56,385 nucleotides of DNA, from assembly GCA_963657885.1 (NCBI GenBank), contig CAVKNZ010000005.1, positions 1 through 56,385 on the forward strand, read 5' to 3'. The notes beneath the pieces are model-generated. The model saw nothing but the letters and a program-made list of their open reading frames with translations. It did not search any database and had not been told where the DNA came from. This stretch comes from Bacteroidaceae bacterium. GTDB lineage: Bacteria; Bacillota_I; Bacilli_A; RFN20; CAG-826. Below, one piece after another: positions 7,031-55,213 of this stretch (position 1 is its first letter; each line of letters starts with the position of its first letter). The position numbers and the translations under genes are program-made.

Positions 7031-7110
7031 AATAATCTTCTAAAAAATCAATTATTCTTCCAAAATTTTAATTAATCTTCCAAAAAATAAATTATTCTTC
7101 CAAAAGATTA
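7031..7110. repeat. 4 x 20-bp direct repeat (ATTAWTCTTCYAAAAnnTnA)
   Basis: Units at 7031, 7051, 7071 and 7091, in the leader region of the 5576-7000 gene. Confidence 0.85.
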
Positions 7111-7137
7111 TACGAAAAGAATATCGAATGAAGTTGA

Positions 7138-7235
7138 CTGTGCACTTTTTTCAAGGGAGTTTTTGCTATGTTCTGCACTTTTTTCAAGCGAGTTTTAGTC
7201 ATGTTCTGCACTTTTTTCAAGCGAGTTTTGTCTTG
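7138..7235. repeat. 3 x ~33-bp direct repeat (ctgcacttttttcaagcgagtttt…atgtt)
   Basis: Units start at 7138, 7173 and 7206. On the minus strand one unit junction reads TTGAAA-17 nt-TAAAAC, which is promoter-like. Confidence 0.85.
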
Positions 7236-7308
7236 CAAAATAAAAAGTTTCGATAAAATCAGTATTTTTGAAAATTAACTTTAAATCAATTAGATTTCAT
7301 CAACTCTA

Positions 7309-8004: not shown

Positions 8005-8125
8005 CTACTACATTTTTTGACTAGCAATTTGCTTTTTAAAAACAAGGAGACACAATTCGCAAGTTCAAAAATCTAACATTGTTATAAAGATAATTGTTAT
8101 ATTTTTGATTTATAAATCTACTTCA

Positions 8126-29921: not shown

Positions 29922-31160
29922 TTATTTTTCTCTTTCTAGCAACGCTTTTAATTGTATTTTATTTATAGATTGATGTTTGATTAAATAATCGCTTATTAGT
30001 TTTATTTCTCGTTTATGAGACTTAAGTTGACGCTTAACAAAGCGGAAATTTTTCTTGATAATTTTTGCTATTCTTTTATCTAAACTGTTACTTAAATATG
30101 GTGAAATAGCACTTCTATCATAGATGAGTTTACTCGAGACATAATAATCGATTTTATCAATATTGTTCTCTAGTAATCTCCACGCGGAACGGTGAGCGAT
30201 TTTTATATCGTCTTCACAGCCTAGTTTATGTCTCTTACATATAATCTCTTCCGCGGCAATGCCAGAAAGAGAAAAACGTAGAAGATTAAATAGACTATCT
30301 CTAGTTTCAACATCTAATAAATCTCTATAAACAGTTTTTCCTCCATTTTGACGGAAGTAACTATGTAAAAATTCTTGGCTTTTAGAAAAGAGATATAAAT
30401 ACATTACGTGTCCTGCTTCATGAATGGCGGTTTCCTTATTAACTTTAAAGTTTCTATTTTTGTAAAGAAGACCTGTTTCAAGAAAATCAACCGCGTTAAC
30501 AATATCGTTAACCACAAACTTGTCGCCATTTCTAAACGTAACAATTTCAATAGCCCTTTTAATCTCGCTTAAAGGATGATGAAGCAAATCATCACTTAGT
30601 TCATAGATGTCATCATCGTTTAGTTGAAGGCCATAAGAGGATAGAAATCCTTTAATAGCCTCTTCTAAATCAGCTCTATCGTTATTGGCTAATTTAAATT
30701 TATAATCAAAGACACCATCTTTTAAAAGTGCATCTGGCAAGTCGCTTAATTGATTAATAGTTGCAAGCGTTAAAACATTCTCATTAAAAATATCTTTAGA
30801 TAACCCTGAATAAATTTTTTGAGTCAATCTATCATCTTTCTTTAAAAGACGATCAATTTCATCGATAATGACAATTGCATTTCCACACTTCCTAGAAGAC
30901 TTATAAATATCAATCATTTCTTTAACAGGTTCTTTGCTGTCGGCCTCTAAAACAAAAATCTGATAATTAAATGATTTCGCGTATTCATTCATCAATAGAG
31001 TTTTCCCGTTTCCCGAGTCTCCGTAAAAGAGTATTCCTCGAGGAAGAAGTTTCTTTTTATCGCTATGTTGAGACAAATTAAGATATCGATTTCGAATTAA
31101 AAATAATTCTTTCTTTATGTTCGAATGCCCATAGACATTTTTTAAAAAATCACCATTCAT
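29922..31160 (-). CDS. Soluble FtsH-like protein: AAA+ ATPase fused to an M41-type HExxH peptidase, no TM segments
   Basis: Walker A GDSGNGKT, Walker B VIIDEID, sensor-1 region LATIN and zinc motif HEAGHVMY. The Arg-finger region is degenerate (PDALLKDGVFD versus canonical PALLRPGRFD). Confidence 0.75.
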   Translation of the reverse strand: MNGDFLKNVYGHSNIKKELFLIRNRYLNLSQHSDKKKLLPRGILFYGDSGNGKTLLMNEYAKSFNYQIFVLEADSKEPVKEMIDIYKSSRKCGNAIVIIDEIDRLLKKDDRLTQKIYSGLSKDIFNENVLTLATINQLSDLPDALLKDGVFDYKFKLANNDRADLEEAIKGFLSSYGLQLNDDDIYELSDDLLHHPLSEIKRAIEIVTFRNGDKFVVNDIVNAVDFLETGLLYKNRNFKVNKETAIHEAGHVMYLYLFSKSQEFLHSYFRQNGGKTVYRDLLDVETRDSLFNLLRFSLSGIAAEEIICKRHKLGCEDDIKIAHRSAWRLLENNIDKIDYYVSSKLIYDRSAISPYLSNSLDKRIAKIIKKNFRFVKRQLKSHKREIKLISDYLIKHQSINKIQLKALLEREK

Positions 31161-32585: not shown

Positions 32586-33581
32586 TTAATACCTTTCTAG
32601 AGCCCTCTGAAGCCCATTTTTAATTTTCAAGACAAAGTTATCTGGAGACAATACTGTCACCGAATCGGAATATTGCATCACCCAGTAATACAGCGCATTT
32701 TCATTGCAGCGAATAGAGGCACATAAGTTATCATCTTTTGCATAAATCTTCGCAGATTCTCCAAAGAAGTCTTTGATGAATTGAATTGATTGTTCGTTAT
32801 CAAGCTTTAAGGTCACATCGATAACGTTTCCATCTAACATATAAAGTTGATCATTTAAATACTTAGAGATAGAGAAATTCTTAGGCCCTTCTTTTAAATC
32901 TTCAAGTCGCTTCATATTCCAATCGTGTTTGATTGTAATGTTCTTCATATAGTCAACACGAAATATTTGAAGCGGTCGATATTTCTCTCGATAATTGCAA
33001 AGCAAATAATATCGGCCAAAGTTATTGATGAGGTAATATGGCGAGACGATATATTGATAGCCTCCATTTCTAGCAATTTCATTCCCCTCTTTATCATATG
33101 TCATATATTGAAAACCCACGCGCTTATTTAGCTTCATTGCCTCATGAATAACGCTGATGTTAAAAAGCACTTCTTTATTTGATGTGCGGTTTATTTCCGA
33201 TGATTTATAGATGTAGGAATAATCTTTCCTTTGATATATAGATAAACAACTAGAGATAGAATCCGCGATTCTTTTCGCGTGCCTTCCATCGATACTTCGA
33301 CTAGAAAAAATCGCATCAATTAAAAAAGCGACTTCGCTGCTATCAAAAGTTCTAGACAATAGGGCAAAACCACCTTTAGGACCTTTGGCGATATCATAAT
33401 CGAGCCCTTCTAAAAGCTGCAAAGATGAGCCAATTGATTTTCTTTCTAATTCAATATCGTAAAGTTGATGAATCTTCTCAGCGATTTCTAGCTGCGTTAA
33501 ATAGTGATTATCATCGCTATATTCCTCTAAGACTTTTAAAACTAATAGAATCGAACTCTTTTTATTTGGAATCATGACCAT
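32586..33581 (-). CDS. wHTH + WYL-domain transcriptional regulator (BrxR/CapW-like class)
   Basis: N-terminal HTH (ILLVLKVLEEYSDDNHYLTQLEIAEKI). WYL core YIVSPYYLINNFGRYYLLCNYREKYRPLQIFRVDYM. Confidence 0.8.
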   Translation of the reverse strand: MVMIPNKKSSILLVLKVLEEYSDDNHYLTQLEIAEKIHQLYDIELERKSIGSSLQLLEGLDYDIAKGPKGGFALLSRTFDSSEVAFLIDAIFSSRSIDGRHAKRIADSISSCLSIYQRKDYSYIYKSSEINRTSNKEVLFNISVIHEAMKLNKRVGFQYMTYDKEGNEIARNGGYQYIVSPYYLINNFGRYYLLCNYREKYRPLQIFRVDYMKNITIKHDWNMKRLEDLKEGPKNFSISKYLNDQLYMLDGNVIDVTLKLDNEQSIQFIKDFFGESAKIYAKDDNLCASIRCNENALYYWVMQYSDSVTVLSPDNFVLKIKNGLQRALERY

Positions 33582-33690: not shown

Positions 33691-34326
33691 CTAGACATTG
33701 TCCTCAATAAAATCAATATCAAAAGGAATTTGATAAATGTATCTTTTTAAAGAATATCTATAATCGATATTGTCATTTGTATCAACTCCCCCAAAAGCAA
33801 ATTTAGGCGCGTTATCAAAAGTTTTTAGGAATTCATTTTTCAATAATTTAACGTCATAAATCTTATATAAAGAAATGCCAGAAAAATTAATTACATAATT
33901 TATAAGATCTTTTAGCATGTCTAAATAACCACGCTCTGCCTCGTTTTGAATCTTTTCATAGCTTTCTTTAATTAATTGAATTGAGGAATCTCTTGAAATT
34001 GCCTCATCAATATTGAACTCATTAGATGCATCATTAAATTTAGAATATTCTTTGATAGAATCATTTACTTTAACGGCGTAGTTAAATGATGCTTTTAAAA
34101 GCCTTTTGTATTCTTCTTTTATCAACTCATCATCTTTAGATTTAAGTAATTTTGTAGCCTTTGAAATGTATTTAGAGTAAAGGTTACTTCTAAACATGTT
34201 GTAATCGAACTTGATGCGGTTGACTAAATTAGAAATATTTATTCTTTCTAAATCAACTTCCTCATCAGATAAAGCGTTAACAGCTTCTAAATAAGATTTT
34301 TCATCAATAAAATTTAAACAATTCAA
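33691..34326 (-). CDS. Hypothetical protein (probably helical)
   Basis: 211-aa ORF downstream of the PolC-like gene. No motif recognised. Confidence 0.55.
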   Translation of the reverse strand: MNCLNFIDEKSYLEAVNALSDEEVDLERINISNLVNRIKFDYNMFRSNLYSKYISKATKLLKSKDDELIKEEYKRLLKASFNYAVKVNDSIKEYSKFNDASNEFNIDEAISRDSSIQLIKESYEKIQNEAERGYLDMLKDLINYVINFSGISLYKIYDVKLLKNEFLKTFDNAPKFAFGGVDTNDNIDYRYSLKRYIYQIPFDIDFIEDNV

Positions 34327-34414: not shown

Positions 34415-36352
34415 TTATACGTCAATATTTGTTTTCTTACCGCTGTTTTCTTTTATTTCTTCTATTAGCTTTTTAGCGTCGTAGCCTCTTTCTTCTAAAT
34501 CTATCGCTCCTAAATAAATATCTTCATAGGTTTTGTATTTTGCATTAGCTAATCCTTTAATGAAATCATAGTCATTAATTTGCTTAACCCATTTTTCATT
34601 AACATCAAAGAAGGCTCGATAATAGCGCATAGGATCATCGAGATATATCTTAGCTAAAAGCAACGCCAATCTTGCTCTAGCAACAGTTTGTCCTTTATAA
34701 AACAATTTTTGAACACCTTCTAAAAACGATATGAATTTCTCGCCCTCCCCCGCATCTTTTAATTTTGAAACAATAAGAGGCGATAGATAGTCTTTTCCAC
34801 TTAGCCTAGTTTCACGACAAACTAATAATGCGTCGTCTTCACTTAACTGGGCTTTGATTAAATACTGATATAATTCATCAATTGATGTGATTGCTTTATC
34901 AATATAGCGGCCATTAAGACAGTTCAAATTAGCTTCAATAACGCCTGTGCCGTGAAGTGATGATAAAACTTTTACTAAACCATCAAATGATTTAACATCT
35001 TTGAAACAATTATTCATTGCTTCAAATAATAGTTCACATCCTAAATCTTGTATTCCTATAAAAGGACGATGTTCATATGTCGAATATTTTTTATAGTGCA
35101 TTGAATAGTAGCTTTCTTCCTTTTTGTCTTTAGGAAAGACGAGACATCTAATTACATGACACACAGTTCTAATATCAATATCGTTACTATTTATTTCTTC
35201 TTGGGTTAGACCTAATATGGACGCGAGTTCCATATCAGATGATCTAACATAATGGAGTGACGGATAAATCGGAAACCGCACATTCTCATCAGTTAAATAG
35301 GAAAACTCAACTCCGTTTCTTTTAAAGTCATCTAATAGCAACTCAAAAGGTAAATCGTAACCATCTTCTTTAAGTGAGGCGCCGCAGCAATCGCATTTCT
35401 CAGCAAGCTTCTTTTCACCCCAATGAAAACTGTGACAATTTGGACAATAATGATGCCTTGGCATCGGGTTAGTGCTTCCAATACCAAGTAAATAAAATAG
35501 AAGTGAATTATTTAAAAAGGCTCTCGAGATAAATATCTGCCCTTGGCTCAGTTTAAATGATTGAATATCAAATACTTGTAAAATAACTTTTAGGCCAAAA
35601 TTTTTAGATAGCTCATCCAATTCATAATCAAGTCTTTTTAAGATATAAGGATTAACAATATCGCCATATATTTCTTTTGCCTTTTTTAAAGTAATATCAT
35701 ATAGCGTTCTTCTTCTTTTGGCTTCTGGGTTTATCTTAATAAGTTCCACGTCTTTGTAATGCTTTTCTACAACCGTATTGATCTTTTTAAGAAAAACTTC
35801 CATATCAATAGGATAAAAATTGTGTATCTCATCTCCTATTAAAAGCACAATAATTATAATCTTGCCGTTATAGTTTTTAGTTGTTTTGTTGTCACAGGAA
35901 TTAAGCAATAAAGTCAATTCTTTTCCTTTATAAGAAAAACCGCATTGAGGAGCAATCTTTAAAAATTCATCCTCTTCAAAAAATCTTCTAAAAGCGGAAA
36001 TGACTTTATCTTTATCACCAAGTGAATCTAAAAGGAGTGTTCCAAATTCCTTAGCTTCAATGGCATAAACTTCTGCATTATTTTTAAATATCTCGGCTTT
36101 ATCAAAATCATAATAGATGTTGCTTTCTTTTGATGACTTTAGCTCGCCGGCTAAACAGTGCTTATTAAATTGATAATCTATTGCTTTTTTTATTTTGAAG
36201 CTATCATCGATGTTGTCTTTATCTAGAAAGCTATCGATCACATCAAAGATGTCTTTTGCGAAATCGTTGTCAAAGTGCGAAACATCATCACAATCGATAT
36301 TTATATCTTTGTCGCATTCATTAGTATTCTTGTTCATTTTCTCTACCTCCAA
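34415..36352 (-). CDS. PolC-derived protein: PHP-Zn-finger / palm / fingers-like core with catalytic residues replaced
   Basis: Collinear blocks match PolC as recalled from memory: AKEIYGD; HHYCPNCHSFHW…CDCCGASLKEDGYDLPFELLL (PolC Zn-finger PHYVCPNC…KDGHDIPFETFLG); FIGIQDLGCELLFEAM…LSSLHGTGV (GIPEFGTRFVRQML…LSHGTDV); LFYKGQTVARARLALLLAKIY…YYRAFF (MFPKAHAAAYVLMA…YYASYF). The palm PDIDLNF position reads NGVEFSY. Confidence 0.7.
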   Translation of the reverse strand: MEVEKMNKNTNECDKDINIDCDDVSHFDNDFAKDIFDVIDSFLDKDNIDDSFKIKKAIDYQFNKHCLAGELKSSKESNIYYDFDKAEIFKNNAEVYAIEAKEFGTLLLDSLGDKDKVISAFRRFFEEDEFLKIAPQCGFSYKGKELTLLLNSCDNKTTKNYNGKIIIIVLLIGDEIHNFYPIDMEVFLKKINTVVEKHYKDVELIKINPEAKRRRTLYDITLKKAKEIYGDIVNPYILKRLDYELDELSKNFGLKVILQVFDIQSFKLSQGQIFISRAFLNNSLLFYLLGIGSTNPMPRHHYCPNCHSFHWGEKKLAEKCDCCGASLKEDGYDLPFELLLDDFKRNGVEFSYLTDENVRFPIYPSLHYVRSSDMELASILGLTQEEINSNDIDIRTVCHVIRCLVFPKDKKEESYYSMHYKKYSTYEHRPFIGIQDLGCELLFEAMNNCFKDVKSFDGLVKVLSSLHGTGVIEANLNCLNGRYIDKAITSIDELYQYLIKAQLSEDDALLVCRETRLSGKDYLSPLIVSKLKDAGEGEKFISFLEGVQKLFYKGQTVARARLALLLAKIYLDDPMRYYRAFFDVNEKWVKQINDYDFIKGLANAKYKTYEDIYLGAIDLEERGYDAKKLIEEIKENSGKKTNIDV

Positions 36353-36370
36353 GATGAGTTTAAAGCAAAC

Positions 36371-36401
36371 AAAAAGCGACTATTTAAACCAGTCGCTTTT
36401 T
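36371..36401. terminator. Strong bidirectional intrinsic terminator (11-bp perfect stem AAAAAGCGACT/AGTCGCTTTTT)
   Basis: The loop is atttaaacc. The stem arms carry A- and T-runs, giving a U-tract on either strand. It separates gene 36426-37778 from the PolC-like gene. Confidence 0.75.
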
Positions 36402-36425
36402 GTGTTTGTATGAGTACAAATTAAA

Positions 36426-37778
36426 TTAATGCCTTCTACGATGACTAAAAAATCCGTGTTTCAAAGCTCTTTGGATTTTTTCATCTCCTACATCGCATTG
36501 ATATTTAGTTAACCAAGCAAGAACGCATTGACTAAGTTCTTCATTTACAGATTTTGGTGAAACAACATTTACTATTTCAGCAACATCGGGATTATTCCAT
36601 AGCCATGAGATAAGCGCGTTCTTATTGACTTCGATATTGACGACGCCAAATCTAGGATAAACATTTTTGGGCAACTCTTCGCACTCAATCGCGTATTTAT
36701 CAATTTTGTATGGTCGATCAAGCGCATTTCCACGTTTAACGTTTTCTCTTTCGATTTTAAAATTGTTGCATTTTATAATCGGCATGTTTCTAGAAAAGCA
36801 TTCTTCAAATGATCTTTTGACTCTATCAACATATCGATAGTCGAAAAAGAAAGACGTTTTATACGCAAAGCCTTTTTCAGGCATGATAGATTTTTCAACA
36901 TATTCTTCTAAGGATTTGTATCTACTTGCTAAATGCTTGTTATTCGATTTAAAAAGATTATCCAAATCTCTTTTGACATCGAAATCGGTTATCACAAGAT
37001 CGCTATCAGGCAATTCAGTTGGAATAGAAAGATTTTCAATTGCATCAAAGATGATGCCACTTTTATTTAAAGGTACAAGAATGGCATATGGTTTATTATT
37101 GTGCTCTTCGATTTTATAAACTCGACAATAAACATTTTCATCAATATTGCCAAAATAGACTTTGCTATAATCGACTTTTTCGTTAACTTTTTGAGCCATG
37201 ACTTCAGGGCTTAATTTTCCGAAATGAGTTTGAACAATTAAGACGCATTTTCCTTCTTTATAGGCTTTATTGACCACTCGCATCTTTTTATTGATCGAGG
37301 TTTTATATTTTTTAACGCGTTTATTTTCTTTTTCTAATTCATTTTTATAAAAATCACGATTATGTTTATTGCATAAAGAATCTAATAACTTATTGATAAG
37401 AAATTCGCTATCTTCATCTTTAGTGTATTTATCATTTTTAACCGCGGCTAAAATTTTAATGATTTGCTCTTCATTAAGATGGTTCTTTTCCTCGATATAA
37501 AACTTGCCAGAATCGGTTTGTTTGATAACGAAAGGAATCTTATCAGTGTTTTCAAACTTATAACAAATACTTTGAAGGAATTGCAAACATTCGCCGATTC
37601 TTTGCCTTCTAACATCGTTTCCAGAAGTGGCTTTCGGATCATATTTAAGCCCAAAATTTGTCGCGTGTCGGCAAATATCTTGTTGAGTCGCCGGGTGATC
37701 GATGTCAGTATAATTTAGCAAATAATCTAATGTTAAAAGCAATTCGATTTGATGGATTGTAGTATCGCTTCTTTTCAT
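36426..37778 (-). CDS. wHTH-domain protein, paralog B (of 38373-39701)
   Basis: N-termini align: RSDTTIHQIELLLTLDYLLNYTDIDHPATQQDICRH…RRQRIGECLQFLQ versus RSEAQIHSTELLLTLDCLLHESDEDNPIKAVDICRY…KRQRISACLRFLD. Both share AAVKNDKYTKDED / AAIKNDRYTKDED. Confidence 0.6.
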   Translation of the reverse strand: MKRSDTTIHQIELLLTLDYLLNYTDIDHPATQQDICRHATNFGLKYDPKATSGNDVRRQRIGECLQFLQSICYKFENTDKIPFVIKQTDSGKFYIEEKNHLNEEQIIKILAAVKNDKYTKDEDSEFLINKLLDSLCNKHNRDFYKNELEKENKRVKKYKTSINKKMRVVNKAYKEGKCVLIVQTHFGKLSPEVMAQKVNEKVDYSKVYFGNIDENVYCRVYKIEEHNNKPYAILVPLNKSGIIFDAIENLSIPTELPDSDLVITDFDVKRDLDNLFKSNNKHLASRYKSLEEYVEKSIMPEKGFAYKTSFFFDYRYVDRVKRSFEECFSRNMPIIKCNNFKIERENVKRGNALDRPYKIDKYAIECEELPKNVYPRFGVVNIEVNKNALISWLWNNPDVAEIVNVVSPKSVNEELSQCVLAWLTKYQCDVGDEKIQRALKHGFFSHRRRH

Positions 37779-37871
37779 ATTTCACTCCTTTAAGAGTCAT
37801 TATAACTAGTTAAACAATTATAACATTGAAAAGAATGTAAGTGGACATATATAAGTACAACGTTTTTTTTA

Positions 37872-38309
37872 TCAGTCTGTTGTTTTGATCATGCAAACAA
37901 ATTCAAGATTATCTAATTTTTTAAATCCTAATTGACATCTAGAATCAACAACATATCTATCGCATAGTAACAATATATGCGATCTCATATTATCGTTAAG
38001 AAGATGATAATTATCGGCGACGATAACTAAATTTGGTTTTGAAGCCATCGCATCAATTGTTTCTTTGTCAAAAAGTTGACCTTCTAAAGTAAGATCTTTA
38101 AATTGAAGCTTCCTACCTTTGCAATCATTAAGAAGTGCGCAGTCAATGTAAAAGCTATTAATCTTATCTTCGTTATGTCTTAGCCAAGAATTAACAATCG
38201 CTGTTTTTCCAACTCCTGTTGCGCCGTAAAAGGTTACATTAGATTTATTCTTTAAAGAATAATCGAGTTCTCTAGTAATTTTGCTTTCCGAGTAAAAGTA
38301 ATCATCCAT
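37872..38309 (-). CDS. Small P-loop NTPase (145 aa)
   Basis: Walker A FYGATGVGKTAIV. A hydrophobic strand plus acidic residue LVIVADNYH is a degenerate Walker B. Confidence 0.55.
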   Translation of the reverse strand: MDDYFYSESKITRELDYSLKNKSNVTFYGATGVGKTAIVNSWLRHNEDKINSFYIDCALLNDCKGRKLQFKDLTLEGQLFDKETIDAMASKPNLVIVADNYHLLNDNMRSHILLLCDRYVVDSRCQLGFKKLDNLEFVCMIKTTD

Positions 38310-38372
38310 AATTTTAATTCCAGTACATTACAAATAGCCCTTTATAAGTACTCTTTCCTTTCTATTGTTTAT

Positions 38373-48438: not shown

Positions 48439-48894
48439 TCATTTATAATCCATTTCGTTCTTTCTTAAGCTATAAGTTACTTCTAAAACATCTTTATCAA
48501 ACAAAAGGATCTTCTTCGTCTCTATCGCGTGCTCTTTTGCTCCTTTATATGAGCCAACAAAGATTTCGTCTTTCGCTTTAAAAGAATGCTCTTTCCCTTC
48601 ACTTTCAATTAATACCGTCTTTGTATACGTCAATAAATATGATTCTTCATACTCATCATTTTTAACATCAGGGTTTATCTCAAATGCATTCGTGTTCTCG
48701 ATAAATCTTCCAAGCACTTTATGGCCTTTATTTTCAAAATATTCTTCGCTTAAAAGTTTATGGAGAATTAAATCATTGAAAGCTTCAAAAATATAAGAAC
48801 GATTAAAATTGATTTTCTTACAAATTTCAATTTCATCTACATAACCTCCCATCGCGATGATGCTTTCTTGAAGGCATTGAACGGCATAACTCAT
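48439..48894 (-). CDS. Hypothetical protein
   Basis: 151-aa ORF. No motif recognised. Confidence 0.5.
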   Translation of the reverse strand: MSYAVQCLQESIIAMGGYVDEIEICKKINFNRSYIFEAFNDLILHKLLSEEYFENKGHKVLGRFIENTNAFEINPDVKNDEYEESYLLTYTKTVLIESEGKEHSFKAKDEIFVGSYKGAKEHAIETKKILLFDKDVLEVTYSLRKNEMDYK

Positions 48895-48913
48895 ATTTAC
48901 TTCATCCTTTCAT

Positions 48914-49324
48914 TTACCATAAGCTATAGATAGAACAACCAACTGCGTCTTTATAAGTAAAAGTTAATTCATCAATAGGCTTAGTTCTCCAAATCTTATG
49001 AAGTTTTTTCTTAGCCCATCTCCAATAGCTAGATTTAGATTTTGAAAATCTAGTGTAGAAGCTGTGCTTTCTTAAATATTCAGAATCTTCAATAGTTTTA
49101 ACCTGACTCTTTCCAAAGTGGCTCTTCATCGGAGCCATGCAGGAGCCAGAATAATTCCAACATGGTTCGATAAAATCGAAATTTCCCTTATCATCATAAT
49201 AAATGGTGTTGTAATGAGGACAGACCCGATTCCATGACTTTTTAGATAAATTTTTTAATCGTCTTTGGGTTTCATTATGCGCGTTATGAGTTTTTCTACT
49301 ATGATGCATATCTTGCTTCCTCAA
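48914..49324 (-). CDS. Hypothetical basic Cys/Trp-rich protein
   Basis: 136-aa ORF with CPHYN…CWNYSGSC. No family recognised. Confidence 0.5.
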   Translation of the reverse strand: MRKQDMHHSRKTHNAHNETQRRLKNLSKKSWNRVCPHYNTIYYDDKGNFDFIEPCWNYSGSCMAPMKSHFGKSQVKTIEDSEYLRKHSFYTRFSKSKSSYWRWAKKKLHKIWRTKPIDELTFTYKDAVGCSIYSLW

Positions 49325-49341
49325 GCTATATTATGTGTATG

Positions 49342-49369
49342 AAAAGATGACCTGTGTTTCAAAGTCATC
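49342..49369 (-). terminator. Terminator-like hairpin GAUGAC-N12-GUCAUC followed by UUUUC
   Basis: Minus strand, directly after the stop of 49410-50084. Confidence 0.4.
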
Positions 49370-49409
49370 ATTATGTCCTTATATTAGAACTATCTTTTAT
49401 AGAAAGGCA

Positions 49410-50084
49410 TTAAGAGAGCTTTTCAATCGCCTTTCTAACGTGTTTCTTTTCTAAGCCGTTTTGCTCAAAGCTAGTTTGCACAAGATATCTTGTCATTTTT
49501 GTCTCTAGATAATCAAACATCTCATCATCTAATATGACAAACTTCTTTATATCGACACCAATTTCTTTTTGCATCTCAATATAACGGAGAATGCCTCTTC
49601 CTCGATAGAGGGGATTACCATCGATGGTTTTATCTTTAATTGCTAAGCCTTGCTTTTCTAACTTCGTATCTAGGTAGGCAGCCATTTCATCTTCGTAGTC
49701 TTTAAAGTAAACATTATTTGTCCAATTAGTTTTCCAAGAAGATGTAAGGACAACGATTGCCTTAGTCGCATCAACAATGTCTTTTAGTAAAGCAACTTTC
49801 TTATCTTCAATGCCAATAAAGCCATTGCATCTATCTTTGGTGGAATGTGAATTAAGCACTCCATCGACATCTAAGAAAATAACTTTCTCTTCTTTAATAT
49901 AAAAAGAGTCATCTATGTCTTTAATCACTAATCCTTCGTGATTGATATAACCTTTTTTAACAAGATCATTAAAGATGCCACAAGCTTTTTTAAAGCCAAT
50001 AGATAATTCTCTTTGTAAAGAAGAGATAGAAATCTTCTCTCCCTTTTTAAGAGTTGAAATGATTTGATTTAAATTGTATTCCAT
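49410..50084 (-). CDS. FtsK-gamma-like wHTH fused to a HAD-superfamily phosphatase-like domain
   Basis: KISISSLQRELSIGFKKACGIFNDLVKKGYI matches the FtsK gamma pattern (ISxSxLQRxxxIGYxRAxxIxDxLExxGI). HAD motif I is VIFLDVDGVLN and a later block is FVILDDE. Confidence 0.7.
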   Translation of the reverse strand: MEYNLNQIISTLKKGEKISISSLQRELSIGFKKACGIFNDLVKKGYINHEGLVIKDIDDSFYIKEEKVIFLDVDGVLNSHSTKDRCNGFIGIEDKKVALLKDIVDATKAIVVLTSSWKTNWTNNVYFKDYEDEMAAYLDTKLEKQGLAIKDKTIDGNPLYRGRGILRYIEMQKEIGVDIKKFVILDDEMFDYLETKMTRYLVQTSFEQNGLEKKHVRKAIEKLS

Positions 50085-50095
50085 AGGCTTCCTTT

Positions 50096-50593
50096 CTACT
50101 TCGCGAGTTCATTGATGAGCCACCTATGATTTTTAATGTAATCTTTTACAGTTTCTTCAATGTCAAAATCTTTAGCCGGTTCTTCCTTCTTAGAAGGCTC
50201 CTTGAAGACTTTATCTGCAATGGCTTTAACTGATATTTGACTACCGCCATCACCGGCGATCTGATATGTTAATTTGCATAATTCTTCATCGCTTATGGCT
50301 AAAGGATTGTTAAGCATTTTACTTGCGAGATATAAAGCGATAACCCCAGTTCTTTTATTGCCATTTAAAAAACCATGATTGATAACTAATGATTTAAAAA
50401 CGCTGGCAAAAGCCTCTTCAATAGAAGGATAAGGCTGATATTGATTGCCTAATGCGGATAGCATTTTATTCTTATCAATAACTCCAAAAGGCTCGCCAAT
50501 TAACAAGGAGAGCTGATTGATTTTAATGATGTCTTCGTAAGTGAGTTCATTATTCATAAAATTAATACCATAAATCGTCAAAATATTTTGCAA
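50096..50593 (-). CDS. doc: Doc/Fic-family toxin (death-on-curing type)
   Basis: Fic/Doc motif HGFLNGNKRTG. The likely start is the internal Met (MNNELTYEDI). Confidence 0.75.
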   Translation of the reverse strand: MQNILTIYGINFMNNELTYEDIIKINQLSLLIGEPFGVIDKNKMLSALGNQYQPYPSIEEAFASVFKSLVINHGFLNGNKRTGVIALYLASKMLNNPLAISDEELCKLTYQIAGDGGSQISVKAIADKVFKEPSKKEEPAKDFDIEETVKDYIKNHRWLINELAK

Positions 50594-51035
50594 ACATCTT
50601 CAATGCTTTTTCTTTATTTAGTTTACAATATTGATCAATTTTTTCCTCTTCGGCTTTATATCTATTTTTATATGAACAAGTGCTTTTATCTGCTTCTAAG
50701 AAAGCGTTTTTCATCTCGACTAAAGTCTTTTGCCATTTCGAAAAACAATATTCATCCATCGCTTTTCTTTGTTCATCATTAATTGTTATAGGACTTAAGT
50801 TATTGTCTTTATAATATTCATTTTCAAAAGAAGAAGGATAACATTTGTTATGCTTAATTAATTCATCAAGCATCTTCGGCATGATTGATAAAAACCATGA
50901 ATCTATTTCATAGACATCATAATCGGAGAAGCCACGCTTCGCGCGTTGTCTTTTCCATTTGATGTTGTTTTTGATTTCTTTTATTTTCATACCTTTTCTT
51001 TCCTCAAAATGGATCGTTATCGCGTTTATAGACAC
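50562..51035 (-). CDS. Hypothetical protein upstream of doc (not Phd-like); likely start is the ATG at 50990
   Basis: The ORF-track start is a GTG. The internal MKIKEIK has a GAGGAAAG SD. Confidence 0.5.
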   Translation of the reverse strand: MSINAITIHFEERKGMKIKEIKNNIKWKRQRAKRGFSDYDVYEIDSWFLSIMPKMLDELIKHNKCYPSSFENEYYKDNNLSPITINDEQRKAMDEYCFSKWQKTLVEMKNAFLEADKSTCSYKNRYKAEEEKIDQYCKLNKEKALKMFAKYFDDLWY

Positions 51036-51095
51036 TTATGATGCATGGATGACAATTTTCATCGACATCCAAATTATCATTCTCATAAGCTTTTT

Positions 51096-51227
51096 CTAAC
51101 GCATTAACTTTTTAGCATTTTCTTCTTCTAAAAATTTCTGATAATTAGCGTCAATTTGCTCTGCAATTTCTTTTGTTAATTTTGGCAATTTCAATCTTTC
51201 TATCTTTCTAACTCTTTTCTTCTTCAT
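51096..51227 (-). CDS. Unlisted small ORF (43 aa, MKKKRVRKIERLKLPKLTKEIAEQIDANYQKFLEEENAKKLMR)
   Basis: ATG at 51227 preceded by an AAGGAG SD. It fills an otherwise empty 230-nt gap. Confidence 0.4.
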   Translation of the reverse strand: MKKKRVRKIERLKLPKLTKEIAEQIDANYQKFLEEENAKKLMR

Positions 51228-51266
51228 AAAGTCTCCTTGCTTTGTTAGATAATTTCATCAAGAGTC

Positions 51267-52679
51267 TTAGCCAATGCAGGCTAAGATCTCTGATGATTTA
51301 AGATGTTTTTTCTCAAAAAGCAAATGTCCTAAAGCTTCTACTTTATATCGATTAGCTTTTAAATATTTAATGGTCTCTTTTTCACACTTCTTTAAAAGGT
51401 GTTCAATCTTTCTTTCCATTCTTCTTCTTTTAATAGGTGTTTCCATTCTTGAGCTTTTAGAGACTATAGGAAGCGTTTCAGAGCAAGATGAATAGCCAAT
51501 CATATTAATCATGTTATAGGCTTCCACTCTCGCGTTTTGTAAATCATTTTCTGAGCCTCTTGAGCCTTCACCGCAGATGAGTTTTTGAGCGAGAACTCCG
51601 GCCATCGAGATTTTGATGTCGGCGATGATCTTTTTGTAAGGCCAAAAGCCTTTTTCAACTTCTTTAGCTTGGAAGTTTCCGCTGGCATCAGAGATATTGA
51701 GTCTATTGATTAAGAAGTATTGTGGGAACTCTTTAGCCATAACAGCATGACCGGCTTCATGGATGGCGACATCTAAATTGTATTTATCAACAGTTTTTTT
51801 AACTCTATCGGTGATGTTATAAATAGAATTATCGATCATCTCCATGCTGATATTATTAAAACCATTTCTTAAAACGATGTCGTTTACCAGTGCTTTAACA
51901 CCAGCGCAGGTGATGCCGTTAAGTGATAAAGCGACTTCTTCATCATCAAAATCTTTTGGCAGTTCTAGGTTAAATTCCTTAAAATGCTTCTTTAAAAGTT
52001 CTAATGCTTCTTCACCTTTTGGATATGGAATATGGATGAGTTTTTCTAAACGTCCATGTCTAAGAAGAGGGTTAGGAATTTCATCCAAATCGTTCGTGGC
52101 AGCAAGCACAAGAATGTCATCGCTTGATTCCACTCCATCAAGGCATTCTTGAAGAGCTCTTGAAACTCTGCTCTCGCGAGCGATGAGTAAATCTAATTCA
52201 TCGAAAACGATGATTGCATGTTTTGCTTCTCGAGCTTTCTTAAAAGTTTCAATGATGCCTTTAGTAATATTGCTTTGTTCGCCTTGGAAAACAAATACCG
52301 GTGCGTCCGCGCATCTAATGATTTCTTTAATAAGCAACGATTTTCCGTTTCCTGGTTCTCCAAAGAGAATGACGCCTTTAGGAATGGAGACTCCTTTTTC
52401 TTTAAGTTCTTTTGATCTTTTAAACCAATCCACGACGAGGAGTAGTTCTTTCTTTTGCTCAACATGACCAACGACTCTAGAAAGTGGCTCTTCACCATTT
52501 TTAAGCTTTTCACCATGTTGAAGCGTATACGCGGGCGCGTCCTCTTTATTATTATTTCCGTCAAGATGTTCTTCTTCAAAGGTCTTTGGTCTACTAACCT
52601 TTTTGTTAACGGTGTCCTTTCTTGATAAAATTTCAAAAAATTCTTCATCATCATCTAATACTTCAATTAAATCTTCCAT
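51267..52679 (-). CDS. Soluble FtsH-like AAA+ ATPase / M41 peptidase (second copy), no TM segments
   Basis: Walker A GEPGNGKS, Walker B IIVFDELD, sensor AATND, Arg-finger region PLLRHGRLE, zinc motif HEAGHAVMA and GSENDL (FtsH GASNDI). Confidence 0.8.
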   Translation of the reverse strand: MEDLIEVLDDDEEFFEILSRKDTVNKKVSRPKTFEEEHLDGNNNKEDAPAYTLQHGEKLKNGEEPLSRVVGHVEQKKELLLVVDWFKRSKELKEKGVSIPKGVILFGEPGNGKSLLIKEIIRCADAPVFVFQGEQSNITKGIIETFKKAREAKHAIIVFDELDLLIARESRVSRALQECLDGVESSDDILVLAATNDLDEIPNPLLRHGRLEKLIHIPYPKGEEALELLKKHFKEFNLELPKDFDDEEVALSLNGITCAGVKALVNDIVLRNGFNNISMEMIDNSIYNITDRVKKTVDKYNLDVAIHEAGHAVMAKEFPQYFLINRLNISDASGNFQAKEVEKGFWPYKKIIADIKISMAGVLAQKLICGEGSRGSENDLQNARVEAYNMINMIGYSSCSETLPIVSKSSRMETPIKRRRMERKIEHLLKKCEKETIKYLKANRYKVEALGHLLFEKKHLKSSEILACIG

Positions 52680-52847
52680 TCATTTTTACCTCTTTTCGAG
52701 ATAATTATGACCATTAAATTTTTATTTATCTGATAGAAATTGATTTGGTACTTTTAGAAGGACATATTTATAAGCTGAAGGATTAAAAGATAACCAATAA
52801 AACTAATTTCAATAAAAAATCTTGTTTTAAGAGTCTTTAATTATTTA

Positions 52848-53753
52848 TTAGCACTTAAGTAATTCAGATAAAAGTTTAGTACGCCCATATAGCTTACCTT
52901 CAAGATAAAAATTCCCAGTACAGATGAGCCAAATCATTTTATCGATTTTATATGGTGTCGCGTCTTTAATTCTACATTGTTCGACTAAATATTTAGCAAA
53001 GTAAAAATAGAATTCAACGCAATCTTGATTGCTTATATCATCAGTATTTTTTTGATTTGTTAGTTCCTTCATAACTTTAATAAGATGGGTATCAGGCTTG
53101 ATAAGCCAATGAACACCAATCTCTTTTAGAAAATCATAAGGAAGCGTGTCGCCGAAACCTTTTATTGACTTAAGGTCTTTAACCACACGATAAGCATCGT
53201 CTAAATTGGCGGTAGATATAGTTTGATTGATTAGACCATTTAAACTTTTAACGTTTTCTTTTTTTGATAAATAATTAACTGCATCAGCTAACCCATGACA
53301 AAATTTCGTCCAATTTGTTTTTATTGCATTATTTCTAACTATTATTAGTTTATCGTCCTTAGATAAATTGTTTAGAGCTGTCCCGTTGTCATCAATATAT
53401 GAATCTTGCATTATTTCTTTATAAAATTCATACCATAGATTGGCACTAGTATTCTTTGGTTCAGTGTACTTGTCAACATCAAAGCCAAATAAAGCTTTGC
53501 TAATAACATTGTAGTTATATTCATCGGGCATGCAGTGAATGGTATTTGCTAGTTGCTTGCTATTATTTAATGAAATAGCAGCCTGTCTAAGAAATTCATT
53601 TGGATTCTTTAACGGCTTTGGTTTTAAATATTTTTTACGATTAGCCCTTTTAATATGCCGTTCTTTAAACATCTCATTCATGATAGATGCAATTTGTTCA
53701 TACCATCTCTTTGCGTATTTCCCATAATTTTGTTTAAATTCATCGTAATTCAT
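52848..53753 (-). CDS. Hypothetical protein with possible HhH-GPD-like (DNA glycosylase fold) segment
   Basis: LKSIKGFGDTLPYDFLKEIGVHWLIKPDTHL resembles the HhH hairpin plus the 'VDTH' block of the Nth/AGOG-type fold. The match is weak. Confidence 0.3.
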   Translation of the reverse strand: MNYDEFKQNYGKYAKRWYEQIASIMNEMFKERHIKRANRKKYLKPKPLKNPNEFLRQAAISLNNSKQLANTIHCMPDEYNYNVISKALFGFDVDKYTEPKNTSANLWYEFYKEIMQDSYIDDNGTALNNLSKDDKLIIVRNNAIKTNWTKFCHGLADAVNYLSKKENVKSLNGLINQTISTANLDDAYRVVKDLKSIKGFGDTLPYDFLKEIGVHWLIKPDTHLIKVMKELTNQKNTDDISNQDCVEFYFYFAKYLVEQCRIKDATPYKIDKMIWLICTGNFYLEGKLYGRTKLLSELLKC

Positions 53754-53822
53754 ATTGCACGCTCCTATACAGTTTTAACTTCGATTAATAATAACTTATT
53801 AAGCAGTTAATAATATGCGCTA

Positions 53823-54671
53823 TTATCCCATTTTCCTACTTCCAATAGTCTTATGGAATTGTTTAATTACTTTCTCAACTTCTGGATCAATCATGAAATA
53901 TAGATATCTATCTTCAAATGGAGATAGTTTATCTTTTTGATAATATGCTTCTGCGATTGAACCCGCCATCGCGGCGATTGTGTCAGTATCTCCTCCAATA
54001 GCCACGCATGTTCTAATCGTATCTTCTAATGAATTTGATATTAAAAAGGCATAGATAGCTTCAGGAACACTTCCTTGGCATGATGAATTAAATTTATAGC
54101 TTTTAACTAATTCATCAAAATCAAGATTAGCTATCTCAGGATAGTAATCTCTAAGCATGACTTCTTTAATTTCTTCTTTGTCTTTTCCGTGTAAAGCTAA
54201 ATAAATGCATAAAGAAACTGCCTCAGCTCCTTTAAGGCCTTCAGGATGATTATGAGTGATCTCTGTCACTGTTTTAGTTAAAAGCTTTAAATGTTCAACT
54301 GAATCGGCGACCCAAGCAACAGGAGAGATGCGCATCGCGCTGCCATTACCAAAAGAATTATATGCCGGAGCAACTTGGTTTTTCTCTTTCGAAGCGATAC
54401 ACCATTGCCTAAATAGATGCCCATATCCTGCATGAGGTTTAGAAAAATATGTTTCAACAAATTCTTTAGCTAAATCTTCTTGAATGCTTTTTAACGATTC
54501 TTTTGAATAGTTGATTGGATAATGTCTCATGAGCACCTTTGCCATGGCAATGGTGAGCATTGAATCATCGGTCATCCTCATCGATGAACGATAGATATCA
54601 AAGTTTTTCCTTTTGCATGATTTAAATTCATATATCGAACCAACCATGTCGCCTATAATTGCACCTAACAT
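53823..54671 (-). CDS. ADP-ribosylglycohydrolase family protein
   Basis: N-terminal MLGAIIGDMVGSIYEF and C-terminal GGDTDTIAAMAGSIAEAYY signature blocks. Confidence 0.85.
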   Translation of the reverse strand: MLGAIIGDMVGSIYEFKSCKRKNFDIYRSSMRMTDDSMLTIAMAKVLMRHYPINYSKESLKSIQEDLAKEFVETYFSKPHAGYGHLFRQWCIASKEKNQVAPAYNSFGNGSAMRISPVAWVADSVEHLKLLTKTVTEITHNHPEGLKGAEAVSLCIYLALHGKDKEEIKEVMLRDYYPEIANLDFDELVKSYKFNSSCQGSVPEAIYAFLISNSLEDTIRTCVAIGGDTDTIAAMAGSIAEAYYQKDKLSPFEDRYLYFMIDPEVEKVIKQFHKTIGSRKMG

Positions 54672-54688
54672 AATCTTTTGTTTCCTTT

Positions 54689-55213
54689 CTAATAATACCA
54701 GTCTGAATGGTCTGTTAATTCAAATTTAATAAATAGCTTATCCATGTTGCTTAAATAATCTAATTCTTTATATTCATCTATTCCTAGAATATGGCTCTTT
54801 TTGCCTTTTGAATATATTTGCCAAATGTTATTTCCATATTTCTTTTTAAATTCCTCTAATGGAGGGTAGATAAAATCATTACCAAATATTTTCTTTAAAA
54901 ATTTATGTTTGCTTGATAGATATACAAACATATCATAAGCCCTTTTATTTCTTTGAAGAGTTTCGCTATCTTGTTTATCTTTTGCTTCCTTACTTTTGGC
55001 AATGTTTTTATCGATCTCTTCTAGGTAAAGGGAAATAAGTTCATTGTCTTCATCATTAACGAATTTAAGGAACCCGTTTTTAAAGGTTAAGGGAGTGCTA
55101 AAAGTTTTCTCTACTCCATTAAAGTTAACAACAACATGCTTTTCATCGATAGATTTAACAATGCCTTTTTCATTGTTTTTATTTATAACTTCTTTATTTA
55201 TAAGTTCATTCAT
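54689..55213 (-). CDS. Hypothetical protein
   Basis: 174-aa ORF overlapping the upstream gene by 8 nt. No motif recognised. Confidence 0.5.
   Translation of the reverse strand: MNELINKEVINKNNEKGIVKSIDEKHVVVNFNGVEKTFSTPLTFKNGFLKFVNDEDNELISLYLEEIDKNIAKSKEAKDKQDSETLQRNKRAYDMFVYLSSKHKFLKKIFGNDFIYPPLEEFKKKYGNNIWQIYSKGKKSHILGIDEYKELDYLSNMDKLFIKFELTDHSDWYY

Follow-up and report, generated by a model that had tools for sequence, protein, structure and literature searches.

Judged from its sequence, the PolC-like gene in the window (the whole 56,385-nt stretch of DNA that was analysed) encodes a fusion of an uncharacterised mobile domain of ~205 aa to a ~435-aa relic of the DNA polymerase PolC. Given that its catalytic residues are lost, that the gene has been kept by selection, and that a WYL regulator lies nearby in a conflict island, the product is probably neither a polymerase nor the remains of a pseudogene, but a binding protein without enzymatic activity. 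The picture as a whole, in which this binding protein would be controlled by a WYL-type partner and would interfere with replication, we consider somewhat better than evenly balanced.

The PolC-like gene and its lost catalytic parts

The gene and the parts discussed below are as follows.

34415..36337, minus strand: PolC-like gene, 640 aa from the ATG at 36337, chosen on RBS and spacer
35723..36337, minus strand: N-terminal domain (aa 1-205), not PolC-derived, with relatives outside the PolC context
34418..35722, minus strand: PolC-derived core (aa 206-640), mapped by hhalign, phmmer against the PDB, NCBIfam, and PF07733
35384..35446, minus strand: Cys4 zinc finger, C298-x2-C301...C315-x2-C318, aligned to CxxC...CxxC of PolC
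35333-35368, minus strand: EDGYDLPFE block after the zinc finger, conserved in the family
35297..35317, minus strand: NGVEFSY, remnant of the catalytic strand PDIDLNF (MAFFT against 14 PolCs; hhalign)
35237..35260, minus strand: SLHYVRSS, opposite LKLDILGH of PolC (hhalign)
34676..34702, minus strand: FYKGQTVAR, degenerate form of the fingers motif FPKAHAAAY (alignment)

The intact ORF described in an earlier note on this DNA (34415..36352, minus strand; 645 aa from a TTG when called mechanically) is real and has a good RBS. However, the TTG at 36352 is overlapped by that RBS, GGAGG (36350-36346), and the ATG at 36337 is suitably placed with an 8-nt spacer, so the true start is likely the ATG and the probable product has 640 aa.

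The similarity to PolC that the earlier note had claimed was borne out by sequence and profile searches, well beyond what chance would give. Using phmmer against the PDB, the protein matched Geobacillus PolC (3F2B, E=8.5e-19) and E. faecium PolC (9QPC, E=5.3e-17), with two collinear blocks in either case, and the family profile aligned to a PolC profile over 400 columns (hhalign; probability 100%, E=1.1e-78). The NCBIfam PolC equivalog NF001688 was matched at E=1.1e-23 with 82.9 bits, short of the 873-bit cut-off of this curated full-length model, and PF07733 was covered only at profile positions 3-94. The AF2 model of the whole protein, built with a 12-sequence family alignment, was poor (pLDDT 48.8), which ruled out surface analysis; as a crude Foldseek query, it gave top matches that were all PolC structures. 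On the strength of these alignments, we conclude that the protein derives from PolC.

Collinearity with PolC is limited to residues ~206-640. The PolC domain boundaries used for mapping draw in part on PMC12592400. The earlier note had the collinear segment start in the post-exonuclease PHP region; its course from the zinc finger to the fingers stands, but the match sets in near the PHP/palm boundary and thus includes practically no PHP, and residues 1-205 are not PolC. Over the ~400 columns shared with PolC (3F2B, 9QPC), the core comprises, in the same order, the start of the palm, the Cys4 zinc finger, a counterpart of the DGxDxPFE block, a vestigial palm without thumb but with the helix that follows the catalytic strand, and complete fingers, within or just past which the protein ends (hhalign). 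All the blocks that had been quoted earlier are present (AKEIYGD, HYCPNC...C-x2-CG...KEDGYDLPFELLL, LSSLHGTGV, and YYRAFF). The zinc-finger cysteines and the DGYDLPFE block are conserved across the family: in an alignment of 12 members, C315, C318, and an additional C317 never vary, and C298 and C301 have a single exception each.

The N-terminal domain carries the conserved motifs HFxKHC, YYDF, FFEG, CGF, TNY, and YPxD, and had neither a Pfam match nor a PDB sequence match (domain profile against PDB sequences). Its relatives are stand-alone proteins of ~200-230 aa or parts of larger multi-domain proteins; they also occur in conflict loci, and one is on a T4-like phage contig (L173). Among PolC-like proteins, it was present only in the window, L004, and L175, and it appears to be a lineage-specific add-on. 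The 211-aa protein encoded downstream was considered as a relative of this domain, but comparison showed no relation.

In contrast to PolC, which has ~1,400-1,450 aa, the ~435-aa relic lacks the Asp triad, RGS motif, thumb, palm core, PHP, DnaQ exonuclease, OB, clamp-binding, and HhH parts. That the N-terminal, exonuclease, and C-terminal parts are missing had been pointed out before, and the PolC-like protein indeed had no Pfam or NCBIfam match to a PHP or exonuclease domain. No conserved QxxLF-type clamp-binding motif was present in the family. In agreement with the earlier note, which held that the palm aspartates were lost and the protein inactive, PDIDLNF of PolC aligned to --VEFSY, with both Asp gone. 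MAFFT placed the central ~85 aa ambiguously, with LGLTQEE aligned to the thumb, and we therefore relied on hhalign for this part. In that alignment, a Tyr in SLHYVRSS stands where PolC has its third catalytic Asp, at a position that is not conserved, and ~100 aa of PolC (thumb and palm core) are missing just upstream. The third Asp is thus absent as claimed, although LGLTQEE, which had been read as the LGHDD block, aligns ~15-20 residues further, with PolC '...LEDLSGIKPQDIP'. The Asp triad is absent in 17 of 17 aligned family members. Likewise, the RGS motif is lost (SRGSVGSS aligns to SRAFLNNS), and KAHAAAY is degenerate as proposed, FPKAHAAAY aligning to FYKGQTVAR. In PolC, this fingers motif forms the nucleotide/inhibitor pocket, whose residues (Y1274, F1276, A1281, and Y1284; PMC12592400) are mostly altered in the relic.

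With the catalytic Asp, RGS, thumb, palm core, and other domains lost, the relic, judged from its sequence, cannot polymerise DNA, and we regard it as catalytically dead. It could still be imagined as a small but genuine polymerase or nucleotidyltransferase working with other catalytic residues, given that it retains the fingers domain along with the KAH-motif Lys, which is kept family-wide. However, no member retains the three Asp, the RGS motif, or their beta-strands, all of which have been lost or deleted, and no acidic residue is conserved at the former catalytic positions across the family (MAFFT, hhalign), making such an activity extremely improbable.

Distribution of the family and selection on it

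The relic belongs to a family of ~25 clusters of stand-alone relatives of ~330-540 aa in metagenomes of gut and rumen Firmicutes. Only 2 of 185,579 species genomes contain it, which makes it rare, and in contrast to PolC it is island-borne and not essential. Among 50,697 phage records and 72,556 plasmids, no member was detected, with tblastn yielding genuine polC only, and a scan of IMG/VR returned none either. In the literature searched, we found nothing relevant on inactive PolC-like proteins or on PolC in connection with WYL or defence.

The family is under purifying selection, with dN/dS values of 0.09-0.31 in seven pairs, and intact ORFs of ~330-640 aa recur in many independent loci with 60 invariant columns. 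These data bear on whether the gene is merely a decaying fragment of a polC pseudogene or an artefactual ORF, as might be thought of a protein that covers part of PolC without its catalytic residues, and in view of the stop within one L002 paralogue and the frameshift in the L175 copy. This reading, to which we give next to no credence, is refuted by the data on selection and conservation; the good RBS also speaks against it, and no other polC remnant, including PHP or exonuclease coding sequence, was present anywhere in the window. The description of the protein as stand-alone rather than as a piece of a disrupted polC, made in the earlier note, therefore holds.

The same comparisons inform a second reading, already suggested in the earlier note, in which the relic would be a decoy or guard that mimics the PolC of the host, so that phage proteins targeting PolC bind to it or are sensed by it. 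Its PolC origin, its place in a conflict island beside a sensor-type regulator, and the retention of some PolC surface motifs (zinc finger and fingers helices) would fit such a role. However, the best 125-aa block shares no more than ~27-38% identity with any PolC, and the nearest stand-alone clusters match at E values of 4e-102 to 3e-81, far better than the best PolC (3e-20). Given that the stand-alone proteins are closer to each other than to PolC, they do not resemble repeated copies of the PolC of each host. Furthermore, most PolC surfaces are gone (PHP, exonuclease, thumb, and C-terminal part) and the pocket residues are largely altered. A decoy role is thus disfavoured, and we consider it distinctly unlikely.

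The WYL-type partner and the conflict island

The genes around the PolC-like gene that are relevant here, together with a hairpin, are as follows.

32586..33581, minus strand: canonical WYL-WCX regulator, 331 aa (Pfam WYL 3.9e-8; PADLOC WYL 1.6e-23)
33691..34326, minus strand: 211-aa protein, function not assigned, directly downstream of the PolC-like gene
36369..36403, minus strand: hairpin with a 14-bp stem, then a U-tract, between partner 1 and the PolC-like gene
36426..37778, minus strand: partner 1, 450 aa, predicted divergent wHTH-WYL-WCX-type regulator, directly upstream of the PolC-like gene
37872..38309, minus strand: small P-loop protein, 145 aa, fused to the partner C-terminus in other loci
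38373..39701, minus strand: partner 2, 442 aa, paralogue of partner 1 (sequence comparison)

The AF2 model of partner 1 (pLDDT 88.7) predicts a wHTH, WYL beta-barrel, and WCX architecture. At E<=0.001, Foldseek retrieved six chains for this model, all of them PafBC or DriD (E 7e-6 to 9e-4; best values 6.8e-6 for PafBC and 2.7e-5 for DriD). CapW and BrxR came next (E 0.01-0.3), mixed with a small number of unrelated winged-helix proteins. By hhalign, partner 1 also matched the canonical WYL protein of the window (probability 55%, E=1.2e-4). At the level of Pfam models, none of 11 members of the partner family matched WYL (PF13280) or WCX, and six of the 11 had a weak HTH_46 match. Structural relatives of the partner have been crystallised with ssDNA (entry titles 8tp8 and 9c5g).

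The PolC-like gene and a partner gene of ~430-600 aa were on the same strand, adjoining or one gene apart, in all 11 evaluable loci (the window, L001, L002, L004, L084-L088, L170, and L175); they adjoined in 10 of these, in either order, and in L001 one gene lay between them. This obligate pairing of the PolC-like gene with a divergent WYL-type regulator, which was out of sight for the earlier note, is the most telling result of the analysis. Three further pairs of a PolC-like protein and a partner (P0003/P0238, P0011/P0261, and P0012/P0210) appear to exist, as judged from agreement in the length of their longest contigs. In the window, partner 2 and the 145-aa ORF together correspond to the fused form of 583-602 aa found at other loci. 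The partner family is larger (182+ clusters) and often occurs without a PolC-like gene, so the partner may serve the island only as a general regulator, with the pairing perhaps a matter of regulation and not of acting together. A family HMM run on all stop-to-stop ORFs recovered no hidden divergent PolC-like gene in the partner-only loci.

The hairpin between the two genes has a dG of -25.8 kcal/mol (z -4.7), and its stem core (AAAAAGCGAC / GTCGCTTTTT) is invariant in the window, L004, and L175, with a variable loop. Such a conserved, terminator- or attenuator-like hairpin between partner and PolC-like gene suggests regulated read-through. The same intergenic region contains a small inverted repeat, TTTGTA-CTCA-TACAAA. 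Scanning the window for Rfam families and tRNAs gave no hits.

The pair sits in a mosaic chromosomal island of conflict genes, as the earlier note had recognised. In the window, the conflict genes encode WYL, FtsH-like AAA proteases, Fic, ADP-ribosylglycohydrolase, HAD_SAK_2, and MoxR-VWA proteins, and related loci carry restriction-modification, GmrSD, Cas1, DUF4143, and NADAR genes. The 211-aa protein has a conserved counterpart in L175 (58%) and, in L172, a weak relative directly after a partner gene. An FtsK/SpoIIIE-like ATPase is encoded near the PolC-like gene in several loci. Neither PADLOC-DB 2.0 (0 families) nor PHROGs matched the PolC-like protein, the 450-aa and 442-aa partners, or the 211-aa protein; given the lack of such models, the neighbourhood is the sole ground for a defence role.

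The make-up of the island also bears on whether the relic might be a mobile-element factor that recruits or blocks the host replisome on behalf of an integrated element or phage, for hijacking or superinfection exclusion. This would be in line with the FtsK/SpoIIIE-like ATPase and with the occurrence of the N-terminal domain family both in large multi-domain proteins and on the contig of a T4-like phage. However, family members are absent from the phage, plasmid, and IMG/VR sets searched, no integrase, relaxase, replication initiator, or virion gene was found among the scanned island ORFs (most >=110 aa), and housekeeping genes flank the related islands. We therefore find a mobile-element factor quite improbable.

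Proposed function and relation to known systems

Returning to the reading of the relic as a non-enzymatic binding protein, we propose that the WYL-type partner would sense a nucleic-acid signal, most likely ssDNA as in its solved relatives, and would control or work with the relic. The relic, in turn, may bind DNA, a nucleotide, or some component of the replisome through the surfaces of its zinc finger and fingers, without catalysis, and would thereby most likely interfere with replication, either that of an invader or that of the infected cell itself. Counting against binding, the thumb, clamp-binding, and HhH parts, which make up most of the DNA grip of PolC, are absent.

In the Y, X, and B families, there are known cases of dead polymerases that persist as binding modules. 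In inactivated polymerase scaffolds such as ImuB/iPolY, inactivated PolX, and the inactive module of Pol epsilon, the fold has been kept under selection while catalytic residues were lost; selection on a polymerase fold after catalytic loss implies a binding or structural role. The relic differs from these in belonging to the C family and in its far deeper truncation. Inactivated polymerases of the iPolY/ImuB type have been described (PMC12926913), and surveys of the C family removed sequences that lacked an intact active site or were truncated (PMC3919608, PMC12926913), so a family like the PolC relic would have been filtered out. We found no inactivated C-family group in these two surveys, nor a published description of one.

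As for the partner, it resembles the regulators of BrxR-BREX, CapW-CBASS, PafBC, and DriD in that a protein of wHTH-WYL-WCX fold is encoded beside variable cargo in defence-type islands. In contrast to these WYL regulators of ~290-330 aa, the partner is larger (430-600 aa), does not reach the WYL model of Pfam, and in some cases has a P-loop domain; moreover, the cargo here is a dead polymerase and not a known defence enzyme. PafBC and DriD both activate DNA-damage responses. The relic could accordingly be imagined as a damage-tolerance scaffold like ImuB, bridging repair or replisome proteins in a WYL-controlled DNA-damage response comparable to the PafBC and DriD regulons: the closest structural matches of the partner are PafBC and DriD, and dead polymerases are established in complexes (iPolY/ImuB; PMC12926913). 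However, unlike ImuB, the relic has no conserved clamp-binding motif, and genes for the partner polymerase DnaE2, ImuA, RecA, or a Y-family polymerase were not found nearby in the window and related loci, where the neighbours are restriction-modification, Fic, ARH, and AAA-protease genes rather than repair genes. The patchy, island-borne distribution is also at odds with such a scaffold, which we regard as unlikely.

A more specific form of the binding-protein reading would make the dead PolC the non-enzymatic effector or co-sensor of a new two-gene system with a WYL-type ssDNA sensor, with or without a P-loop, that detects or blocks the replication of foreign DNA in gut Firmicutes, and would make its family the first inactivated C-family (PolC-type) polymerases to be recognised. 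We offer this proposal only tentatively, as a possibility rather than as our expectation. If it is true, the relic might cap primer-template junctions or titrate a replisome component during infection.

Our results define a large, unannotated branch of WYL-like regulators (182+ clusters), which recurs beside soluble FtsH-like proteases in Firmicute islands. PolC is a target of antibiotics, and what its zinc finger does is little understood. Should the relic disturb or monitor replication, it would represent a new kind of non-enzymatic cargo under WYL control, and could serve as a natural tool for finding the interaction surfaces of PolC, in particular those of its zinc finger and fingers.

The PolC-derived core and its family

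The minus-strand ORF at 34415..36352 encodes 645 aa when counted from a TTG. Given that this TTG overlaps the ribosome-binding site (GGAGG at 36350-36346, followed by 8 nt and an ATG at 36337), the product is most likely 640 aa long, as in the public gene call (P0001). The resemblance to PolC proposed in the earlier note was confirmed by several searches. Using phmmer against all PDB chains, we retrieved Geobacillus PolC (3f2b, E=8.5e-19) and E. faecium PolC (9qpc, E=5.3e-17), each as two collinear blocks (query residues 217-345 and 432-602). The NCBIfam PolC equivalog matched at E=1.1e-23 (82.9 bits versus a cut-off of 873), and Pfam DNA_pol3_alpha matched 10 of 12 family members weakly, over profile positions 3-94 of 260 only. 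An hhalign comparison between profiles of 23 family members and of 14 PolCs gave a probability of 100% (E=1.1e-78, 400 aligned columns). The protein is homologous to PolC, of whose functional hallmarks it has only the zinc finger.

In the hhalign alignment, family columns 12-429 (about residues 207-624, core numbering beginning at residue 196 of the 640-aa protein) map to one continuous PolC stretch, from ~140 residues before PDIDLNF to ~390 after, ending in the fingers. The collinearity with PolC proposed for the whole 645-aa protein therefore holds from about residue 207 on, while the N-terminal third is a separate, non-PolC domain. The retained elements are the helices that lead into the palm (AKEIYGD...), a Cys4 zinc finger (C298-x2-C301...C315-x2-C318), the EDGYDLPFE block, the helix following the catalytic strand, and the entire fingers domain (IGIxDLG, HGTGV, RDxLY, FYKG[H/Q], PxRYY). 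Conservation is highest in the zinc finger plus DGYDLPFE block and in the helices of the fingers; in the 12-member alignment, C315, C317, and C318 are invariant, and C298 and C301 are each substituted in one member.

PolC PDIDLNF aligns to --VEFSY in the window and to --LTFDF and similar in relatives, so that both catalytic Asp residues are lost, as the earlier note had claimed. The third (LKLDILG) aligns to a non-conserved Tyr, SRGSVGSS became SR(A/L)xxxNS, and ~100 PolC residues comprising the thumb and palm strands (GQHPGG...TTHFDF) are deleted. The pocket motif YMFPKAHAAAY, which in E. faecium PolC holds Y1274, F1276, A1281, and Y1284 of the nucleotide/inhibitor pocket (PMC12592400), aligns to KLFYKGQTVAR with conservation of Phe and Lys only, in agreement with the degeneration described previously. 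The proposed pairing of LGHDD with LGLTQEE was not recovered: hhalign placed LGLTQEE opposite PolC '...LEDLSGIKPQDIP', ~15-20 residues downstream. The PHP, exonuclease, OB, clamp-binding, and HhH parts, most of which had already been reported missing, have no counterpart in the protein, nor elsewhere in the window by tblastn with four full-length PolCs (E<=10). These losses demonstrate a relic unable to act as a polymerase; a cryptic polymerase, which the kept fingers might recall, would be extremely improbable.

A word-indexed search yielded 11 relatives, ten of them 425-450 aa long and the other 642 aa, and an exhaustive search of 1.84 billion representatives yielded ~25 clusters (50% identity) of 330-540-aa stand-alone proteins. 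Members occurred in 2 of 185,579 species genomes, both MAGs (one Oscillospiraceae, one Bacilli), and on 8 metagenome contigs, and none was found in IMG/VR, GenBank phages, or PLSDB plasmids. In the 12-member alignment, 60 columns are invariant, and dN/dS was 0.09-0.31 in seven pairs (Nei-Gojobori), showing that the relic is under selection. The stand-alone proteins are a real family, not debris. A pseudogene, as the loss of catalytic residues might suggest, has next to no probability, and these ratios, the intact stand-alone relatives, and the lack of other polC parts in the window also argue against a disrupted full-length polC, in line with the earlier note.

The N-terminal domain and the conflict island

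The exhaustive search split the query in two. Residues ~215-640 matched stand-alone PolC-like proteins and true PolCs, and residues ~5-210 matched a different set, composed of ~200-230-aa stand-alone proteins and larger proteins with this domain as one module, such as P0037, which also has an N-terminal PemK/MazF domain.

35723-36337, minus: N-terminal domain (aa 1-205); relatives are proteins P0038, P0046, P0055, P0063, P0029, P0031, P0034, P0037, P0066, and P0127, and members in loci L173 and L174

The domain has the conserved motifs HFxKHC, YYDF, FFEG, CGF, TNY, and YPxD, and had no Pfam match and no PDB sequence match. One member is encoded on a 143-kb T4-like phage contig (L173) beside portal and prohead-protease genes, and another, with Fic and KwaA in its vicinity, on a bacterial chromosome (L174). 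This is an uncharacterised mobile domain. Among PolC-like proteins, only those of the window, the Oscillospiraceae MAG L004 (61% identical), and L175 carry it. In L175 (9998-11912), the domain and the core lie in different frames, with a frameshift near 10468-10473, which reflects either an assembly error or a fusion that has split naturally.

Sugar metabolism genes (galT, galK, melibiase, ABC transporter, GH43) occupy 9.9-29.1 kb of the window, and a conflict island extends from ~29.4 kb to its end:

29922-31160, minus: first of two FtsH-like proteases, 412 aa
after the first FtsH-like protease, minus: SHOCT protein
32586..33581, minus: canonical WYL regulator
33691-34326, minus: 211-aa ORF, no family assignment
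34415..36337, minus: PolC-like gene
36426..37778, minus: partner 1, 450 aa
37872..38309, minus: P-loop ORF, 145 aa
38373..39701, minus: partner 2, 442 aa
after partner 2, minus: FtsK-like ATPase
within 41023-45894, minus: MetK-like protein, VWA, and MoxR, in this order
49410-50084, minus: FtsK-gamma wHTH fused to HAD_SAK_2
50096-50593, minus: Fic
51267-52679, minus: second FtsH-like protease, 470 aa
53823-54671, minus: ADP-ribosylglycohydrolase

The conflict island in which the earlier note had placed the ORF is present, with the WYL regulator, Fic, ADP-ribosylglycohydrolase, FtsH-like proteases, and MoxR/VWA all found. In L175, the gene content is nearly the same (49-82% identity), in broadly similar order. 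Further genes in other family loci encode a type IIG-like restriction-modification enzyme, methylases together with an HNH nuclease, an AlwI system, DUF3825, GmrSD, Cas1, DUF4143 ATPases, and NADAR. Integrase, relaxase, replication, and virion genes were absent from the island ORFs scanned, and the island is a mosaic chromosomal conflict island. That the relic is a hijack factor of a mobile element, a reading to which the phage-borne N-terminal domain might lend itself, seems unlikely.

Directly downstream of the PolC-like gene, the 211-aa ORF has a 58% identical copy in L175 (12021-12656) and is weakly related (25%, E=2e-8) to an ORF that immediately follows a partner gene in L172 (9761-10372), a locus without a PolC-like gene. 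The stretch at 41023-45894 encodes a MetK-like SAM synthetase, divergent by its score (138 bits versus a cut-off of 309), a VWA protein, a 148-aa ORF, a MoxR-type AAA_5 ATPase, and a 177-aa ORF. Kept as a block in L175 (56-82% identity), it has the appearance of a distinct MoxR-VWA conflict module, one with an unusual component resembling a SAM synthetase. The block at 48439-56204, with Fic, FtsK-gamma/HAD_SAK_2, ADP-ribosylglycohydrolase, and several unannotated ORFs, recurs in shuffled order in L005, L087, L170, L172, and L175. A second conflict-type cluster, including a PRiA4_ORF3-like protein, lies at the left end (604-9472):

3829-5100: HipA kinase toxin
5576-7000: Schlafen AlbA_2 protein with HATPase_c_4
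8126-9472: AAA_14/DUF4143 ATPase, a type also seen next to partner-family genes in L001, L164, and L168

The WYL-type partner and the intergenic element

All window ORFs were compared with 12 family loci and then with further loci. In every evaluable locus (window, L001, L002, L004, L084-L088, L170, L175; n=11), the PolC-like gene shares its strand with a homologue of the 450-aa/442-aa partner type, adjoining it in 10 and separated by one gene in L001; both gene orders were found. Three further pairs, outside these 11 loci, were inferred from the longest contigs of matching size. In the window, the partner is duplicated (36426-39701) as 35% identical paralogues. The 145-aa P-loop ORF between them corresponds to the C-terminal domain of fused 583-602-aa partners in several loci (L002, L084, L085, L087, L170). 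In some loci, two PolC-like paralogues flank the partner gene, the second being more divergent (411 aa, 36% identical to the window protein) and on the far side of the partner gene:

L002, 4419-5732: copy broken by a stop codon
L085, 13715-14950: intact copy, as is the other paralogue of this locus
L089, 481-1716: intact copy

The partner had no Pfam assignment beyond a weak winged-helix match. All six PDB matches at E<=0.001 to its AlphaFold model (78-sequence alignment, pLDDT 88.7) were WYL regulators by Foldseek, the best being PafBC (9fnd, E=6.8e-6) and DriD with ssDNA (8tp8, E=2.7e-5). CapW (7tb6; 9c5g with ssDNA) and BrxR (7t8k, 7qfz) followed at E 0.01-0.3, with a few unrelated winged-helix proteins interspersed. 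By hhalign, the partner also matched the canonical WYL protein of the window (E=1.2e-4) from the wHTH into the WYL-domain start. These results show that the partner is a WYL-fold regulator to which the relic is genetically tied. According to PDB entry titles, ssDNA was present in crystals of DriD and CapW, and a BREX locus is the source of BrxR. PafBC is likewise responsive to ssDNA, and both it and DriD are activators of damage regulons; CapW represses CBASS, and BrxR represses BREX.

The partner family is much larger (at least 182 clusters at 90% identity) and often occurs without a PolC-like gene (L164-L169, L171, L172). The dependence is therefore one-sided, in that a PolC-like gene is always accompanied by the partner, whereas the partner often stands without it. 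In partner-only loci, a soluble FtsH-like AAA+M41 protease typically adjoins the partner; the smallest island seen consists of partner, 104-aa ORF, and FtsH-like protease, flanked by a tRNA-methyltransferase-like gene and a Bmp/ABC operon. Such soluble AAA + M41 peptidase proteins, represented by the 412-aa and 470-aa proteins of the window, also occur in L166, L168, L170, L171, L172, and L175, and the commonest neighbours of the partner family are 72-80% identical homologues of the second. On this basis, regulator and protease may form an independent module.

Partner 1 and the PolC-like gene are separated by a conserved intergenic region:

window, 36338-36425, minus
L004, 2661-2744
L175, 9918-10000

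This DNA is 80% identical across the three loci, compared with only 49-67% for the flanking proteins. It contains a hairpin (36403..36369; 14-bp stem followed by a U-tract; dG -25.8 kcal/mol, z=-4.7), preceded by a short inverted repeat, TTTGTA-CTCA-TACAAA. The stem core (AAAAAGCGAC / GTCGCTTTTT) is identical in all three, and the loop varies. The hairpin is compatible with a terminator/attenuator that would gate read-through into the PolC-like gene, and the element as a whole could be an attenuator or an operator.

Proposed role of the relic

We propose that the partner would sense a nucleic-acid cue and control, or form a complex with, the relic, whose own action would rest on binding to DNA, a nucleotide, or a replisome component. 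Because its demonstrated parts are strong, we lean modestly toward this reading of a dead, selected PolC relic paired with a WYL-fold partner and acting via nucleic-acid sensing and binding. The likeliest single role of the relic, held with rather low confidence, is replication interference or monitoring. The relic might work like other inactivated polymerase paralogues (ImuB/iPolY, inactive PolX, the inactive Pol epsilon module), from which it differs in belonging to the C family. An ImuB-like repair scaffold would follow from this analogy, but is rather improbable; the family has no conserved clamp-binding-like motif. A decoy, as the earlier note had suggested for an inactivated polymerase fragment kept intact in a conflict island, is slightly less probable still.

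Two comprehensive surveys describe the C family as DnaE1-3 and PolC only, and both explicitly discarded sequences that were truncated or without an intact active site (PMC3919608, PMC12926913). Our literature search found no link of PolC-like proteins with WYL or defence. The stand-alone PolC-like proteins are a rare family that had not been catalogued before, and their genetic partner is both strict and interpretable.
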